Of a DNA stretch of 56,400 bases, positions 29,457 to 36,045 are shown in pieces. Positions within the stretch are counted from its first letter, which is position 1. Each line of letters starts with the position of its first letter. A program made the translations under genes and the position numbers. The notes beneath the pieces are model-generated. The model did no database searches and was not told the DNA's origin. It saw only the letters and a list, made by a program, of their open reading frames with translations. Source of the DNA: a virus. Taxonomy: Duplodnaviria > Caudoviricetes. The stretch spans positions 1-56,400 of IMG/VR virus record IMGVR_UViG_3300037488_002133. One strand, written 5' to 3'.

Positions 29457-30041
29457 CTACTTGATGAACCCTTCGGTCCGGAGGTAGTCGACGAGCTTGA
29501 CGCCAAGGCGAGCGGCAGCTTCTGCCGACGGTTGTCGTGCAAGTGCGACGTTAACCTCATTTAGAAGCGTCGTGTCAAAGCGCATCGACTGAAACGAGCC
29601 ATCATCGAGCCTGCCCGAGCCGTGAAGGTACTGACTGTTGCTTGTGATTGCATCGAGTTGCGCTCGGTGCTCTTCCAATCGTGCCGCTTTTTTCTTATGC
29701 GTGTGATCGCGCTCGGCGTACTTGGCTCGGAGCTCGGCGACCTTGAAGGTCGTGGCAGCGTGCCACCTGAACAGGCGATTCTCCCAATGGGGGTTGTCGA
29801 GGTTGATCGTGATGGACTTGATAGAGTCGGCGTAGACCGCGTCCTTGTCGTCGCAGCCGAGCACAAATTTCGAGGCGCTTACGGAGGTGCGATGGCCACC
29901 CTTGGCCCTTACGCCGCGCAGGTACATCGAGGTCTCGGTCTTCGAGCGGAAGTACCAATGGTTATTGACGATGCTGGTGTCTTGGATTCCCCAGCCGAGG
30001 CGGGTGAGTATGTCGCGTAATCTATCGGTGATGTTGAGCAT
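29457..30041 (-). CDS. Hypothetical protein
   Basis: 194-aa ORF in the early operon. Confidence 0.65.
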   Translation of the reverse strand: MLNITDRLRDILTRLGWGIQDTSIVNNHWYFRSKTETSMYLRGVRAKGGHRTSVSASKFVLGCDDKDAVYADSIKSITINLDNPHWENRLFRWHAATTFKVAELRAKYAERDHTHKKKAARLEEHRAQLDAITSNSQYLHGSGRLDDGSFQSMRFDTTLLNEVNVALARQPSAEAAARLGVKLVDYLRTEGFIK

Positions 30042-30045
30042 GGTG

Positions 30046-30333
30046 TTAATCGGTTATGGATTTGGAAAAAACTTTCACGGCGAAGCAGGGTTTGGTGACG
30101 GACTCCACGGAGTAAAGTTCGTCACCCATCAGGAAAAAAGGGTGCATCGGAGCGCCCGCTTGTATCGCCTTCCACGGCGACTTCTGCGACAACACCGTCG
30201 GGGGCGTCGTCGAGTCATCCCACGCAATGTGCGACAAATTCTTTATGCGACGGAGCCCGCGTTGCGAACGCAGTTTGACCTCGGATTTATGGTGTTTGTT
30301 GAGGACGGTTTTGGCCCAGTAGGTGGTGATCAT
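30046..30333 (-). CDS. Hypothetical protein
   Basis: MITTYWAK start at 30333, 5 nt after upstream stop. Confidence 0.55.
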   Translation of the reverse strand: MITTYWAKTVLNKHHKSEVKLRSQRGLRRIKNLSHIAWDDSTTPPTVLSQKSPWKAIQAGAPMHPFFLMGDELYSVESVTKPCFAVKVFSKSITD

Positions 30334-30338
30334 AGTGA

Positions 30339-30557
30339 CTAGAACGAGGGTTGGACGGCATCTTCTCGCGTATCGACGCGGTCGATACCGTGGTGGGGAG
30401 TGAACCGATAGAACGAACGACCGTCGAGGCTTTCGAGGGCATAGACGTCGGGACGGAAGTCGCCGGGCGTGGCGATGGAGCAAAGAACGCGGAGGCGTAG
30501 GAAGCCGACGCGAACGACGGAGCCTGCGCTCCAATTCTGGCGGGAACGTGTGATCAT
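30339..30557 (-). CDS. Hypothetical protein
   Basis: 72-aa ORF (QNWSAGSVVRVGFLRL..FTPHHG) resembling small phage early proteins. Confidence 0.6.
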   Translation of the reverse strand: MITRSRQNWSAGSVVRVGFLRLRVLCSIATPGDFRPDVYALESLDGRSFYRFTPHHGIDRVDTREDAVQPSF

Positions 30558-30596
30558 GTTGTGTAGTTGGATGTTGGTTACTGACGTGGAAAGTTA

Positions 30597-30623
30597 ACCA
30601 CCCTCCCCCGAGGGGAGGGTGGT
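30597..30623 (-). terminator. Perfect 12-bp hairpin after the VWA gene (terminator or processing site)
   Basis: ACCACCCTCCCC-cga-GGGGAGGGTGGT. Confidence 0.55.
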
Positions 30624-30629
30624 GGTCGG

Positions 30630-31892
30630 TCACAGCTCGACGTGGACCGTGCGCCCCGTCTGAGCGACGGTGTCTGTAGTGGACAACCAGAGGGTGGCGA
30701 CATCCACGCTCTCTGGCTCGTCACCGCAGAGGTCCGTGAGGTAGACCAAGCCCGCCACCGTCTCGCCCGCCTCGACCAACTCCGCCACTCGGGCGAACGG
30801 CTCGTGGAAGTCGGTGCCGCCGCCGCCCTTGGCGTGCAGTGGCGCGTCCTCGCCCGGTGCGAGGCGATACTCGGCGTGGATGATCGTGTCGCAGTCCATG
30901 ACGAGCGCCTCGCAGTTGAGGTCGGCGCAGCACTGCGAGATGAGCGCCGTGAACTCCGCCGTGAGCTTATCGTCAATCGATCCGCTGGTGTCGCGGACGA
31001 ACACCACGAGGCCGGTCGACTCGACCTTGCGGCGGGGGTAGATGACCGGAGCACCCGCGAAACGGCGGGCGCTGCGGGTCCAGTCGTTGCGGGTCGCGAT
31101 GCTGGACTTGAGGAAGTCGGCGGTCTCGTCCTTCCAGTGGAGCTTCACGGGTGCCTTGAGGGCATCGAGCAGGCGCTGGAGCTCGGCGGGCGCGGTACCC
31201 TTGCCGAGCGCACGGGAGGCTTGGTCGGCCTGCACCAGCGCCCTATCCCACTTTTCCTTCACCGAGGGCGGGGGCGTCTTGCCGGGGAGCGGTGCAGGGG
31301 TCGGCGCTGGAGCCTCGAAGCCACCGCACCCGCCAACGTCTGGCGGGGGCTGACCGTTGGGGTCGGGCTGACCGTTGGGGTCGGGCTGACCGTTGGGGTC
31401 GGGCTGCGGCTGACCACCACCCTGCGGGGGCTGACCACCCTGCGGGGGCGGCGGGGGGTCGCGGCGAATGGCGGCGAGGATCTCTTCCTCGGCGAGACCG
31501 TCGTACTTGGTGTCACGCAGTCCGCCTTTGGGCATCATTACGCCCGCCAACTTCTCGAGGACGGCGTTGATTGCGTAGTCGCCCGCCATGTTGCCTTCCT
31601 CGTTGAGCGGGAGACGGTGAAAGTGGTCGTGGGCGCAGTGGAGGGTCTCGTGGAAGAGGACGAAGCGGACTTCCTCGGTCGTGAGCTTGGCGACGAAATC
31701 GGGGTTCCAGCGGATCACGGCACCGTCGGTGCAGGCTGTGGGGACCGTGGGGTCGATGACGTCGCGGAGGTTAGATGCGAGCGAGCCGTAGAAGGCGGCG
31801 TGCGGGGTCGTGAGGCCCCAGTAACGGGCCTTGTCGATTTCGATGGGGATCGGGATGTTGGACATGGTGATATCGGTTGTGGGATGATGCAT
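30630..31892 (-). CDS. DUF2201-like metallopeptidase + VWA domain protein
   Basis: TACTDG, FVLFHETLH (HExxH), DTSGS (MIDAS), GGGGTDF, YLTD; QPDPNG linker repeats. Confidence 0.88.
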   Translation of the reverse strand: MHHPTTDITMSNIPIPIEIDKARYWGLTTPHAAFYGSLASNLRDVIDPTVPTACTDGAVIRWNPDFVAKLTTEEVRFVLFHETLHCAHDHFHRLPLNEEGNMAGDYAINAVLEKLAGVMMPKGGLRDTKYDGLAEEEILAAIRRDPPPPPQGGQPPQGGGQPQPDPNGQPDPNGQPDPNGQPPPDVGGCGGFEAPAPTPAPLPGKTPPPSVKEKWDRALVQADQASRALGKGTAPAELQRLLDALKAPVKLHWKDETADFLKSSIATRNDWTRSARRFAGAPVIYPRRKVESTGLVVFVRDTSGSIDDKLTAEFTALISQCCADLNCEALVMDCDTIIHAEYRLAPGEDAPLHAKGGGGTDFHEPFARVAELVEAGETVAGLVYLTDLCGDEPESVDVATLWLSTTDTVAQTGRTVHVEL

Positions 31893-32692
31893 TACAGGCT
31901 GAACAGGGAGCAGAGGTCGGTAGCGCGTTGCGCTACGTTGGCGCGGGCGATGGGGTCGTCGCGCAGGGTCTCGGCGTCGAACTCGGTGAGCTCGGCGGCT
32001 TGGGCCGCAAGGGCGGCGATCTGGGGGTCGTCGCGCAGGTTCAGGTCCGGTACCAGAGCGAGAATCTCGCTCAGGTTACTGACGAGCGTGTCCCTGAAGA
32101 TGCCTTTGGGATCGCGCAGCTTCTGGGCGACCTTGAGGATCGCCTCGGCGAGGCGCTCGCGGAGCTCGTCCTGAGCCGCCTTGCTGGCCTCGTCGATCCA
32201 CTCGGCCCACTGCCCGACGTCGGGGACGGGGAGGTAGCGGGTCGCAAAGGAGAACCGAGCCGCCACGACGTCGTGGGCGGGCCATTGGCTGGCGACGTAC
32301 AGACCATTGAGGCGGGCTGGGGCGTCGGCACGCACGCGGTCGTAATCGGCGAGGAACTGGGAGACGAGGGTGTCGATCCGTACGCCGAACGACTGCATGA
32401 GCGCCGAGTGCTCGAACTGGCGGGCGGCGGGCAGGAGGCGAAGACCCTTGTCGGCTGCGGGCAAGGTGAGCCGGTAGTGCTCGGCGCGGGCCTCCGTGTG
32501 AAGGCGGGCGATCTCTTCCAAGGCGGGGTGGTTGCAGATCTTGACGTCGACCCGCGCTTCGTCGCGCAGACCGTGGCGGGCATTCTCGGCGGCAGTTTCG
32601 GCGGCGTGGCGTTTGACGGTGCGCCAGGCGCCCACGTTCAACGTGGCGATGACGGCTTTTGATGACAGGCGGGCGGTGGTGGGAGCATTCAT
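31892..32692 (-). CDS. Hypothetical protein (DUF3150-like) of the AAA/VWA module
   Basis: Helical 266-aa protein between AAA and VWA genes; LNLRDDPQI motif. Confidence 0.6.
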   Translation of the reverse strand: MNAPTTARLSSKAVIATLNVGAWRTVKRHAAETAAENARHGLRDEARVDVKICNHPALEEIARLHTEARAEHYRLTLPAADKGLRLLPAARQFEHSALMQSFGVRIDTLVSQFLADYDRVRADAPARLNGLYVASQWPAHDVVAARFSFATRYLPVPDVGQWAEWIDEASKAAQDELRERLAEAILKVAQKLRDPKGIFRDTLVSNLSEILALVPDLNLRDDPQIAALAAQAAELTEFDAETLRDDPIARANVAQRATDLCSLFSL

Positions 32693-32734
32693 GGTTATAT
32701 CTGTTTTTGGTTGTTATGGATTGAGAACTGAAGA

Positions 32735-32775
32735 GAGCCGCCCCCAGCACTATTGGAAAGTGCTGGGGGCAGCTC
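32735..32775 (-). other. Long intergenic hairpin (about 16-17 bp)
   Basis: GAGCTGCCCCCAGCAC-loop-GTGCTGGGGGCGGCTC; one G-U pair forms on the minus strand only. Confidence 0.65.
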
Positions 32776-32790
32776 GATGAGGTCTCAGGG

Positions 32791-33825
32791 TTACGTGGTG
32801 AAGAGCGCCTGATTGGCGAGCCACCATTCCTGCCATGCTTTGTTGCCCACGAGCTTGGCACCGAGGCGGGCAAAGGCATCGCGGGCGCAGTACGCGCCCA
32901 TCACTCGCGGCAGGCGGGCGATGTACGTGACGAGCTGCGAGGCGTACTTGGCCTCGACGGCGCGACCGAGCATGGCGGCGATCAGGTACTGGGCTGCTGG
33001 GTCCGTGGGGACCGGAGCGCCGTGGGGGTCCATCCAGACCTGCTGGGGGGTCGGGAGCTGATCGGCGAGCGCGGCAAACGCGAGGAACTCCGCAGCGGCA
33101 GGTTTGCCGATTGCGGCGGAGACCGTCGCGAAGTCCCGCAGGCCAGCCTCCCAGAGGTGACCCACGGTCTCCCACGAGCGGAAGTCGGGCATACGGAGGG
33201 CGGGGTCCGCTGCGGGCTTCCACGCGTAGAGCGTGCGCCCCGTGGTGCTGCGGTGCCACGCGATGAGCTCGGGGCAGAACCCCTGCTGGCCTGCCCAGTT
33301 GGCCCATGCGTCGACCTCGTCACGCCACGTCGTGAGGTAGGTGGGGCCATCGGCCTTGTCCTCCGTCAACGGCGTTGCAATCGCAAATGCAACGTGGAAG
33401 CGGGAGCGGAGCGGCTCGCAGAGCGAGGTCACGCCTGCCTTGTCGCCCGGTCGATTGGTGGCACCCCAGATGACGACCGACTTGCTGATCGCGCCGTCGT
33501 CGAAGAGGGCCATCGCTGCGGCCTGCACGTCGACAGGCGCTTGGCCGAGGTCGTCCAAGAAGAGCAGGGTGGGGGTGGTGGTGTGCCGCAAGTCCCAGAG
33601 CAGTTGCAAGGGGAGCGACTCCGTGACGCCCTTGGCTTGGTTGGGCACGTAGCAGCCGCCTAAATCGACCCTCTCTGCCAGAGCAGAGCGGAACACGATG
33701 AGCTTGCGATTGCAGTCGAGGGCGGCGGCGGCTACGCGGGCCGTTTTGGCACAGCCGGGCGGGCCGACGAGGAGGACGCGGCGATTGGCATTGAGGAGCT
33801 GGGTGAGGCGGGATGATGAGGACAT
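32791..33825 (-). CDS. MoxR-like AAA+ ATPase
   Basis: GPPGCAKT Walker A, LFLDD Walker B, GATN sensor, LRSRF Arg finger. Confidence 0.85.
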   Translation of the reverse strand: MSSSSRLTQLLNANRRVLLVGPPGCAKTARVAAAALDCNRKLIVFRSALAERVDLGGCYVPNQAKGVTESLPLQLLWDLRHTTTPTLLFLDDLGQAPVDVQAAAMALFDDGAISKSVVIWGATNRPGDKAGVTSLCEPLRSRFHVAFAIATPLTEDKADGPTYLTTWRDEVDAWANWAGQQGFCPELIAWHRSTTGRTLYAWKPAADPALRMPDFRSWETVGHLWEAGLRDFATVSAAIGKPAAAEFLAFAALADQLPTPQQVWMDPHGAPVPTDPAAQYLIAAMLGRAVEAKYASQLVTYIARLPRVMGAYCARDAFARLGAKLVGNKAWQEWWLANQALFTT

Positions 33826-33853
33826 AGGAGGACTGGGTTGGGTGAGGCGGGCT

Positions 33854-33907
33854 GGACTCGTCAGCAGTGCAGAGAGCACTGGACGCCCCGTGGGGGGCGT
33901 TTCGTCC
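33854..33907 (-). ncRNA. Hammerhead ribozyme, type II (copy 1)
   Basis: GGAC-GAAA-CGCCCC(CCAC)GGGGCG-UC^CAGUGC(UCUCU)GCACUG-CUGACGA-GUCC; full core and three helices; predicted cut between 33882 and 33881. Confidence 0.9.
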
Positions 33908-34239
33908 TATTGGCGGCGGTCGGCGGCGTCGGTCCCTAACCACCACTGCGGAAGCCGGTGGTCGGTGGTGAATGCACCAGTGGTGGCGGTCGTGTAGTCG
34001 AGGGCCGCGACCGTAGCGGCGTCCCACGCAGTGAGGGCCGCTTGGCGGGCGGCGAAGGTGAGGGCGGATGCGGCATCGGCGGCATCGGCCTCGGCGATGG
34101 CAGCGGAGAGGGCGGAGCGAGCGGCGTCGACTGCAGCCGCCGCCGCGATGGCGCGGTCGTAGGCAGCGCGGTCGGCGATGCTGGCGGCAGACCATGTGGC
34201 GTAGGTTAGTGCGGAGGCGTTTTCGTAGGTGGTTTTCAT
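33907..34239 (-). CDS. Ala-rich helical protein (110 aa) flanked by two hammerheads
   Basis: MKTTYENA..; TAG overlaps the first base of ribozyme copy 1; paralogous to 34326-34742. Confidence 0.7.
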   Translation of the reverse strand: MKTTYENASALTYATWSAASIADRAAYDRAIAAAAAVDAARSALSAAIAEADAADAASALTFAARQAALTAWDAATVAALDYTTATTGAFTTDHRLPQWWLGTDAADRRQ

Positions 34240-34264
34240 AGGAGGAACAGGAGTGAGGCGGGCT

Positions 34265-34317
34265 GGACTCGTCAGCAGTGCAGAGAGCACTGGACGCCCC
34301 GTGGGGGCGTTTCGTCC
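34265..34317 (-). ncRNA. Hammerhead ribozyme, type II (copy 2)
   Basis: Identical to copy 1 except one C fewer in loop III; predicted cut between 34293 and 34292. Confidence 0.9.
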
Positions 34318-34325
34318 TGTGGGGG

Positions 34326-34742
34326 TTAGTAGTCGGCGAGGACGGCAAGTGGGGACACATACGCTGGCGCGGTGCGCGGTGCGGCGTAGGCGCTGCGGGC
34401 CGCGACCTCGGCGCGTGCGGTGGTGAGTTTGTCCCACGCGTCGAACGCCGCTTGGCGGACGGCGAACGAGCGATCCGATGCGGCGATGGCCGCGTCGTTC
34501 TCGGCCCGAGCGGCGTCGTAGGCATCGTAGGCGGCTCGAGCCGCTTGGCGGAAAGCGAACGAGGGGTCCGAGGTGGCCCACGAGACTGCGTCGATCTCGT
34601 CCGACACCTTGGTGGCGGCGGCGAGGGCGTGATAGCTCGTGGTGCGGCGATCGTACGCAGCGCGGTCTGCGGCGGCGGCTGCGACGTAGACGTTGAAGGC
34701 GAGTTCGGCGGCTTGGCTAACGATGGAGTAGGAGGATGACAT
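34326..34742 (-). CDS. Ala-rich helical protein (138 aa), first gene of the early operon
   Basis: MSSSYSIV..; shares ADRAAYDR and FAxRQAAxxAWD with the downstream ORF. Confidence 0.7.
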   Translation of the reverse strand: MSSSYSIVSQAAELAFNVYVAAAAADRAAYDRRTTSYHALAAATKVSDEIDAVSWATSDPSFAFRQAARAAYDAYDAARAENDAAIAASDRSFAVRQAAFDAWDKLTTARAEVAARSAYAAPRTAPAYVSPLAVLADY

Positions 34743-34747
34743 AGGAG

Positions 34748-34774
34748 GACTGGGTTGACTGGGTTGACTGGGTT
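34748..34774. repeat. 3x GACTGGGTT tandem repeat
   Basis: Directly visible; one more copy at 33831 upstream of the AAA gene. Confidence 0.85.
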
Positions 34775-34783
34775 GATTGAAGC

Positions 34784-35169
34784 GTGAGTGCTTCCTACAG
34801 GGCTCACGGGGAGCGTGGGCGCTGTAGGAAACACTCACTGGAGTGTTCCTGCCCGATTGTCCCCCACGTCGGTTAAGAGCGTAGTTTTGTCGGGCGATGC
34901 ACGGCTGGCGGGGGGATGACCAGTGTGTCCCTCGGTGCGCTGGTTGGAGCGCGTTTGTCGAGGGCAGCTATTACGACCAGATGAAGGGTCGAGGCGGGGG
35001 AGATAGATCAGTCGGAGGGAGTTACCCCTGCAGTCGATCACTTCCTTTACGCTTGGCTCACCATCCCCCATCGCGGCGTAGCGCGACTTTCGGAGCCCTT
35101 GGAGTGGGAGTGAGGGGGGAAGCGTTTGGCTCGTTGAGCCGCTCGCTTTCTACCGTCCTCGCTGCCACT
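34784..35169 (-). ncRNA. Candidate ~390-nt structured RNA / 5' leader of the early operon
   Basis: No credible ORF; many nested helices; starts ~35 nt after TTGACC. Confidence 0.5.
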
Positions 35170-35204
35170 GAAAACAAGCTGCTGGATGATGGGGGCTCGG
35201 TCAA
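35170..35204 (-). promoter_or_regulatory. Putative early promoter
   Basis: TTGACC-N17-CAGCTT on the minus strand. Confidence 0.45.
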
Positions 35205-35480
35205 GCGCATAAAACAGAATCTGTTTACGATTGTTCACAAAGTGTTGGAGATGAGGCAATTAAAGTTTCGTCGATTTTTGAGGGTTTTGGGATATCCAAG
35301 GCGTGGATACGAAATTAGGAGCATCCTTATGGGTAGGTTATCTCTATAATTGTATGGAAAAAAATAAGAGAGTAAGGGTAGGGATACAGTATATAAATAT
35401 TAGAGAGGGGTTTCCCCATTGACCTACCCATAAGTCTGTCGAGAGTTGACTCGGCGGCGACGGAGCGCACACTGGTCGGC

Positions 35481-35756
35481 ATGGAGACGATCTACGACCA
35501 CCACTACCACAACCCCGACTTGAATCCGAAAAAGCGATACAGGGAGCGGCAGCGTGATCGGTTCCTCTGCGTGCATTGTCCGCAGCCAACGGTGCCCGGT
35601 TACGTCCGGTGCCAGCGCCACCTAATGGTGAGGCGGGCTCGGCGAGTCGGCGAGTCGGCCAAGGCTACGGCTCGAAAGCATGAGCGGGAGCGGCAGGAAA
35701 TGTGGATGCTGATGCTCGCGGCTCGGGTCCGTCGTGGTCAGGCCGATGTCATCTGA
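35481..35756 (+). CDS. Small basic protein with possible Zn-finger
   Basis: CVHC..C..H motif; TTGACT 35 nt upstream. Confidence 0.55.
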   Translation: METIYDHHYHNPDLNPKKRYRERQRDRFLCVHCPQPTVPGYVRCQRHLMVRRARRVGESAKATARKHERERQEMWMLMLAARVRRGQADVI

Positions 35757-36045
35757 GACTGGGTCTCAATAGGGTCAAAAACAGGGCTTTCGTAAGTGCC
35801 TGAAAACAGGTGGTTTACGTGAGTCGAAACAAACGGGTCGAAATCGATTCTAAGGCCCATTGCGGCCAATCCTCGGGGGGTCGGGCAAAAACGAGGGCAC
35901 TGGTAGCGGTTGTCAGATGATTTGTTGGGGGACCAATGAGTTAGGTGATTTCGGAATTTCGGAATAGGGGCCGCAGAATCGATTTAAACGGGGGTGGGCG
36001 ATTTAAGGCTTGATTTGAGGCTTATTGCGACTGAGTCTCAGTCTC

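Follow-up and report, generated by a model that had tools for sequence, protein, structure and literature searches.

The 56.4-kb genome of an uncultured phage (Caudoviricetes; IMG/VR record IMGVR_UViG_3300037488_002133, a whole virus record and the window analysed here, positions 1 to 56,400) carries two type II hammerhead ribozymes on its minus strand, HH1 (34265-34317) and HH2 (33854-33907), which bracket a small open reading frame (ORF) of 110 amino acids, ORF-B (33907-34239, minus). Both ribozymes are probably functional and would process a long message co-transcriptionally into single-gene mRNAs. An earlier note, made from the sequence alone, had recognized the two elements as type II hammerheads flanking one ORF in the sense direction of the operon, and core, stems and permutation show that this was right. 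It had left open whether they cut a polycistronic message into monocistrons or produce a protein-coding circular RNA; the former is the best-supported reading, based on published precedent, conservation with covariation in stem I and a weak hint from RNA ends, whereas the circular RNA found no support.

Read from 34317 to 34265, HH1 consists of GGAC, GAAA, stem III (CGCCCC/GGGGCG, loop CAC), UC, the predicted cut, stem I (CAGUGC/GCACUG, loop UCUCU), CUGACGA and GUCC, with the outer GGAC and GUCC forming stem II. HH2, read from 33907 to 33854, differs solely in loop III, which is CCAC instead of CAC (one extra C). The core is complete in both copies (CUGACGA, GAAA and GUC, comprising C3 U4 G5 A6 C7 G8 A9, G12 A13 A14 and C17), and the adjoining Watson-Crick pairs are A15.1-U16.1, G10.1-C11.1 and C1.1-G2.1; pairs at these positions (A15.1-U16.1, N10.1-N11.1 and N1.1-N2.1) form the acceptance rule given by Perreault et al. 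(PLoS Comput Biol 2011, PMC3088659). In the minimum-free-energy structures of the 53- and 54-nt RNAs, stems I and III are loop-closed and the 4-bp stem II is open, corresponding to permutation type II. Cleavage is predicted 3' of C17, between 34293 (C17) and 34292 in HH1 and between 33882 (C17) and 33881 in HH2, so that the 3' products would begin at 34292 and 33881 and the piece between the cuts would measure 411 nt.

After cleavage, ORF-B would have a 53-nt leader (34240-34292, minus) composed of the stem I hairpin, the core strand, GUCC, the tail AGCCCGCCUCAC and a C/U-rich stretch ending in UCCUCCU ahead of the AUG, and the AAA ATPase gene that follows HH2 (32791-33825, minus) would have a leader of 56 nt (33826-33881, minus) built in the same way. 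Folding predicts that both leaders are unstructured beyond the 5' hairpin once cleaved. The TAG stop codon of ORF-B (33909-33907) shares its G with the first G of stem II in HH2. On re-reading, every coordinate and count that the earlier note had given for the core, the loop III difference, the cuts, the 411-nt unit and the 53- and 56-nt leaders was correct.

Under the proposed mechanism, one long minus-strand transcript would run from an AT-rich promoter region at ~35200-35400 through ORF-A (34326-34742, minus; 138 amino acids, upstream of HH1), ORF-B and the AAA ATPase gene into the remainder of the replication module, and each ribozyme would cut itself 3' of C17 during transcription. The upstream mRNA would then end in the stem III hairpin and a 2',3'-cyclic phosphate, while the downstream mRNA would start with a 5'-OH and the stem I hairpin, and the products would separate quickly because only the 4-bp stem II joins them after the cut. 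This would result in three independent mRNAs (ORF-A; ORF-B; AAA ATPase onward), with stability and translation free of neighbouring sequence. The placement of the ribozymes between a stop codon and the next start, with no terminator-like site between the genes, is consistent with such processing. Cleavage in vivo at HH1 and HH2 is suggested by the weak RNA hint described below together with precedent in other species, and its benefit may be insulation or differential stability. A functional parallel exists in RiboJ, a synthetic ribozyme insulator in which a self-cleaving ribozyme before a gene frees the transcript of its upstream RNA context and leaves it with a hairpin at the 5' end; the likeness is one of function only, RiboJ being an engineered part.

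To place the two elements against chance, we used a strict descriptor that required the core together with 4 bp or more in stems I and III and 3 bp or more in stem II. It matched twice in the 56.4-kb genome compared to no match in 300 dinucleotide shuffles, and it also found none in 1000 shuffles of the GC-rich 6-kb region around the ribozymes. A loose, core-only pattern was not significant (two matches versus a shuffle mean of 1.56, with two or more matches in 45 of 100 shuffles). For the isolated RNAs, the hammerhead was both the minimum-free-energy and the centroid structure, at -24.4 kcal/mol (z = -2.96) for HH1 and -25.3 kcal/mol (z = -3.68) for HH2, and 4 of 200 and 1 of 200 shuffles, respectively, folded as well. 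Searching the whole genome for further ribozymes with Rfam at E values up to 1 returned only HH1 and HH2.

Conservation of the element was assessed in eight related viral loci found via the AAA ATPase (75-97% identity). Four of them (L122, L123, L124 and L129) carry one hammerhead upstream of the same ATPase gene, and in a metagenome contig (L130) the ribozyme sits immediately upstream of the ATPase gene, with an unrelated ORF preceding it. The earlier note had pointed to related phages as a place to look for units in which two ribozymes enclose an ORF; these relatives have a single ribozyme before the ATPase gene, and such units occur elsewhere among phage contigs. In L122, L124 and L129, stem I is UCGGCG/CGCCGA as compared with CAGUGC/GCACUG in HH1, HH2 and L123, meaning that all six pairs have been exchanged with the core and stem II unchanged. 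This exchange with pairing kept is strong evidence, from sequence comparison, for selection on the RNA fold. Genes upstream of the ribozyme vary, being ORF-A and ORF-B here, an ORF-B-like gene in L122 and the unrelated ORF in L130. In L123, two genes follow the ribozyme as a block, one of them an extra ORF. Because upstream gene content varies in this way, the ribozyme marks a border between variable small ORFs and conserved replication genes.

The two copies within the window look like a tandem duplication with a period of 410-411 nt. They contain an exact direct repeat of 55 nt (33842-33896 and 34253-34307, spacing 411), and the ribozyme, loop III apart, and the next 12 nt (AGCCCGCCUCAC) are 100% identical in both copies compared to ~55-75% for the flanking coding DNA of the 411-nt units, which suggests that the element is under selection or that gene conversion occurred recently. 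The 55-nt element might alternatively be imagined as a hammerhead-shaped cassette joint with little or no catalysis, either DNA homology for the duplication and swapping of small genes or a slow or relic ribozyme. The tandem duplication, the differing gene content just upstream of the ribozyme (L122 and L130, and the extra ORF after it in L123) and the failure to find a tertiary contact would all suit such a joint. Every core nucleotide is kept in all copies of the lineage, however, and stem I has been exchanged with its pairing, as expected for selection on an RNA fold and not for DNA homology. The element is, moreover, invariably sense-oriented, following one stop codon and preceding the next start. 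We therefore consider a cassette joint unlikely.

Two further observations concern the sequence after stem II. Part of the tail, CGCCUC (only GCCUC in L123), is kept in the relatives even where neighbouring bases vary, and its possible pairing with GGGGCG, the 3' strand of stem III, makes it a candidate contact. Separately, the 11-nt tail motif GCCCGCCUCAC has a third copy at 35628-35638 (minus), upstream of the AT-rich promoter region and with no adjoining hammerhead.

To ask how common such elements are, we scanned IMG/VR with a stem III-specific pattern, which matched at least 119 contigs, and parsed these loci and the present one (120 sources) exhaustively; 9 of the 119 had no match under stricter stem rules. 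Among the matches listed, there were 160 hammerheads in the 120 sources, with at least one in 111, at least two in 23 and at least three in 9 sources, and up to eight in one locus. In 47 cases, adjacent hammerheads on one strand lay within 3 kb of each other, and 31 of these pairs were spaced by 700 nt or less; among the matches listed, 27 of these 31 close pairs have between them a single sense ORF that takes up at least 60% of the gap.

HH1 and HH2 represent a subclass with a 4-bp stem II, a stem I of 6-7 bp, a loop I of 3-5 nt and no pseudoknot between loop I and the tail. In an alignment of 41 subclass sequences (40 distinct), 98.0% of cells were paired, 13 of 18 pairs changed on both sides and none of 500 shuffles reached the observed score, although the rows had been pre-selected by a stem filter, and the pairing and covariation figures are inflated accordingly. 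Core columns were invariant across the 41 sequences, and the base just before stem II was A in 41 of 41 correctly registered rows, with a 42nd, mis-registered row set aside; this invariant A may supply the tertiary contact that is otherwise missing. Four other phage contigs (L102:7294-9695, L075:7226-11157, L118:2918-5359 and L089:1326-4507) carry series of six to eight type II hammerheads, with almost one for each small gene. Many of these also have a (G/A)UCAG motif after stem II, and it is possible that this motif pairs with the core CUGA(U/C) strand to form a post-cleavage or inactivating hairpin.

The closest precedent is found in Perreault et al. (PMC3088659), who described type II hammerheads as common in bacteria and found prophages in which single genes or short gene blocks are flanked by several hammerheads. 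For these they proposed processing into single-gene mRNAs and considered circular or spliced products. Three of their tandem sets cleave in vitro, and the set from A. tumefaciens also cleaves in E. coli. The novelty implied by the earlier note does not hold, as the same layout and both readings are already present in that paper, and the layout has thus been described in phages since 2011. Like the clusters reported there, the present one consists of same-orientation, intergenic hammerheads in a phage operon with flanked genes that are not constant: two hammerheads, 411 nt apart, surround one ORF in a phage gene block. It differs in belonging to an uncultured 56.4-kb phage as opposed to a prophage of a named bacterium, in having two copies only and in lacking the loop I-to-tail pseudoknot, which is reported there for most type II representatives (PMC3088659). 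For Desulfovibrio vulgaris, three type II hammerheads are reported to cleave in vivo based on cyPhyRNA-seq of 5'-OH and 2',3'-cyclic phosphate ends (PMC8782182). Two of the type II hammerheads there are also close together, ~313 nt apart, beside phage-like and hypothetical genes (PMC8782182), but organism and sequences are different and the evidence for cleavage came from end-specific capture.

Environmental RNA offers a hint of cleavage at HH1. Four runs were compared as contigs and not as reads, and contigs cannot prove an RNA end. In the metatranscriptome X23, contig 14 (187 nt) covers 34114-34292 with no mismatches, and contig 13 (444 nt), from a related strain, begins at 34292, has 317 differing letters and rejoins the genome sequence where the ATPase gene starts. 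The two contigs end exactly at 34292, the base with which the predicted 3' product would begin, and neither has a loose end. They fully explain the summed X23 depth of 2.68 in the bin 34279-34365, and no X23 contig lies over 34293-34713. A DNA contig from X3 (contig 21, 34197-34362) crosses the HH1 cut. By our own arithmetic, the chance that one of ~10 contig ends falls at either of two named positions in 2601 nt is ~1%. Coverage by RNA contigs was sparse, with ORF-B uncovered in X16, a run from the same study as X23. The ends at 34292 are thus a weak hint of an RNA 5' end produced by cleavage, with a stop of the reverse transcriptase as the rival explanation.

Several results weigh against processing by HH1 and HH2. 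All three RNA contig ends fall within 3 nt of the base of the GC-rich stem III, a possible stop for reverse transcriptase, and come from one study only; the third of these, contig 10 of X16, ends at 33884, 3 nt past the HH2 cut, and fits inexactly. In the other four relatives (L125-L128), we found no hammerhead before the ATPase gene at Rfam E values up to 5 or with our descriptor, and these have CA-rich leaders instead; the ribozyme is dispensable in part of the lineage because half of the eight relatives are without it. The earlier note had proposed a search with the Rfam type II models, and both elements were indeed found with RF02276 (Hammerhead_II), but neither reached the gathering cut-off of 37 (29.9 bits for HH2 and 27.7 bits for HH1). 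The alignment of stem II to this model was poor, with one non-standard pair marked. Sub-threshold matches to RF02276 also occurred in 6 of 14 control genomes, and for this reason the Rfam scores alone are weak evidence. In permutation and core the two elements are like RF02276, and their stem III sequence is near the family consensus; they are unlike it in having a stem II of 4 bp versus 2-3 bp, a loop I of 5 nt versus ~10 and a tail that does not pair with loop I.

Speed of cleavage is a further point on this side. The complement of loop I (UCUCU) was not found in the tail (AGCCCGCCUCAC, AGCCCGCC) or in the 5' flank, indicating no loop I-to-tail pseudoknot, and the remark in the earlier note that no tertiary contact is evident stands for these regions. 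According to Perreault et al., this pseudoknot is typical of type II hammerheads, being present in most, and the construct tested cleaved 20- to >100-fold more slowly once it was lost (PMC3088659). It is not a requirement, as ~40% of all hammerheads are predicted to use it (PMC3088659). Because the pseudoknot is absent, fast cleavage at physiological Mg2+ is not assured.

Finally on this side, when HH1 and HH2 were folded with their flanks, stem II was replaced in the minimum-free-energy structure by a 6-bp distal helix (ACAGGA/UCCUGU in HH1 and AUAGGA/UCCUAU in HH2), and the predicted fold would be an inactive conformer. One could view this helix as regulatory, with the ribozyme and the start region competing for the same bases so that cleavage is conditional, coupled to translation, and frees the start region. 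The helix appears in the flanked folds of both copies with one compensatory difference (C-G in HH1, U-A in HH2), and its 3' strands are close to the starts they would mask, UCCUGU being 5 nt upstream of the ORF-B start codon and UCCUAU running into that of the ATPase gene. Its conservation is poor, however, as the pairing read by eye in relatives is 5 bp in L122 and L130, 4 bp in L124 and absent in L123. The flanked folds also have low ensemble frequencies (0.045 and 0.0096), and the complementarity may just reflect a C/U-rich start region facing the purine-rich GGA. Conditional cleavage of this kind is accordingly doubtful, and we place little confidence in it.

The remaining alternative is that the 411-nt unit is closed into a circular, translatable ORF-B mRNA, either by the reverse hammerhead reaction or by a host ligase of the RtcB type. 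GUCC near the 5' end of the fragment would pair with GGAC near its 3' end and rebuild one hammerhead, and the geometry permits this, with stems I and III each wholly contained in one half and stem II alike in both copies. The possibility was raised by Perreault et al. (PMC3088659), and 5'-OH and 2',3'-cyclic phosphate ends suit such ligation (PMC8782182). On the other hand, Perreault et al. stated, with data not shown, that no circular or spliced products were detected in tandem sets (PMC3088659), and a 4-bp stem II without a tertiary clamp would be expected to favour release over religation. Relatives have a single hammerhead before the ATPase gene; one ribozyme cannot excise a unit, and the conserved role needs no circle. 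No back-joining joint was listed in the four runs, which is without weight, as the contigs were built from 31-letter words, shorter than the 55-nt exact repeat, and a circle junction is unresolvable with them. Altogether, we consider a circle very improbable; if true, it would be a protein-coding circular RNA from a DNA phage and a very stable early message.

Retrozymes and viroid-like circular RNAs offer a further comparison. Most of these RNAs are non-coding. As in those systems, a unit between two hammerheads could in principle be released and circularized here, but they are reported in eukaryotes (PMC4918200) whereas the present unit codes for a protein and belongs to the DNA genome of a phage. 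Viroid-like agents and plant retrozymes mostly use type III hammerheads, and metazoan retrozymes mostly type I (PMC13725137), in contrast to the type II form of HH1 and HH2, which sets them apart from both groups.

We next consider the genes that processing would separate. ORF-B is Ala-rich and predicted to be helical; it matched no Pfam or PHROG family and had no usable Atlas feature match, and its Atlas model resembles a long helix with generic long helices as structure neighbours. Compared with relatives, substitutions at the three codon positions numbered 8/6/20 and 16/7/31, with no gaps, and ORF-B is judged to be coding because substitutions concentrate at the third position. ORF-A is a weak paralogue of ORF-B, sharing the motif FAxRQAA..AWD (E = 9e-4 over 18 residues). 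The assignment of the gene after HH2 as an AAA ATPase by the earlier note was confirmed by PF00004 and phrog_1297 (E = 1.6e-42), and it also matches PF07728. The minus-strand block below the ribozymes is a replication module, encoding this ATPase, a DUF2201 VWA/metallopeptidase-like protein, a primase, a DUF2800 exonuclease, a family A DNA polymerase and an SNF2 helicase. Between 32500 and 36500, there was no terminator-like site on the minus strand and no sigma-70-like promoter, the latter being a type that may not be the host's, and no tRNAs were found in the 56.4-kb genome.

Translation starts in this region share an unusual context. ORF-A, ORF-B and the AAA ATPase gene all begin with UCCUCCUAUG (34749-34740, 34246-34237 and 33832-33823, minus), a pyrimidine run that is the opposite of a Shine-Dalgarno sequence and that occurs at these three places on the minus strand and nowhere else in the genome. 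In a crude scan, only 11 of 51 long ORFs were preceded by a Shine-Dalgarno-like motif, and the host probably does not rely on Shine-Dalgarno pairing. Leaderless translation from an in-frame GUG 2 nt past each cut (33879 and 34290, in frame with the AUGs) was examined as a candidate and rejected, as the UCGGCG strand of stem I in L122 provides no start codon and the GUG is not conserved. The sequence CAACCCAGU is present three times in tandem before the start of ORF-A (34749-34775, minus) and once before that of the ATPase gene (33832-33840, minus), and in L097, an unrelated locus, hammerheads are followed by similar CA-rich repeats (CCAACCCAAA...).

Base composition is also distinctive, with a GC content of 0.61-0.67 in 30000-36000 versus ~0.55 elsewhere and a plus-strand G-over-C skew of 0.16-0.23, because of which the coding (minus) strand of this region is unusually C-rich. 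At the head of the operon, a stretch of ~240 nt (34835-35071, minus) has 80-89% nucleotide identity in six of the eight relatives. We tested a 78-amino-acid ORF in this stretch as a conserved gene, given tblastn matches in six of the eight relatives, and rejected it: substitutions were spread evenly over codon positions (for example 11/9/4, 11/12/9 and 13/13/16), there were indels of 1-14 nt and two of the tblastn matches were split across frames. Judging by these patterns, a conserved leader RNA that does not code for protein is more likely here than a gene. Where no hammerhead is found between genes, GC-rich hairpins followed by U-rich or CA-rich runs were observed in L130 (470-500, minus) and L125 (3950-3985), and these may serve as alternative punctuation, for example as terminators or processing sites.

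What phage hammerheads do, whether processing, stability control or the making of circles, has been a recognized question since 2011, and this locus raises no new one; it would become a convenient test case only with the host known. Its value is as one clean added example, from a freshwater or sediment phage lineage, of hammerheads as punctuation between phage genes, and as a representative of a subclass without the pseudoknot (stem II of 4 bp, preceded by an invariant A, and loop I of 3-5 nt), which occurs commonly in phage contigs and to which the Rfam model assigns too low a score.

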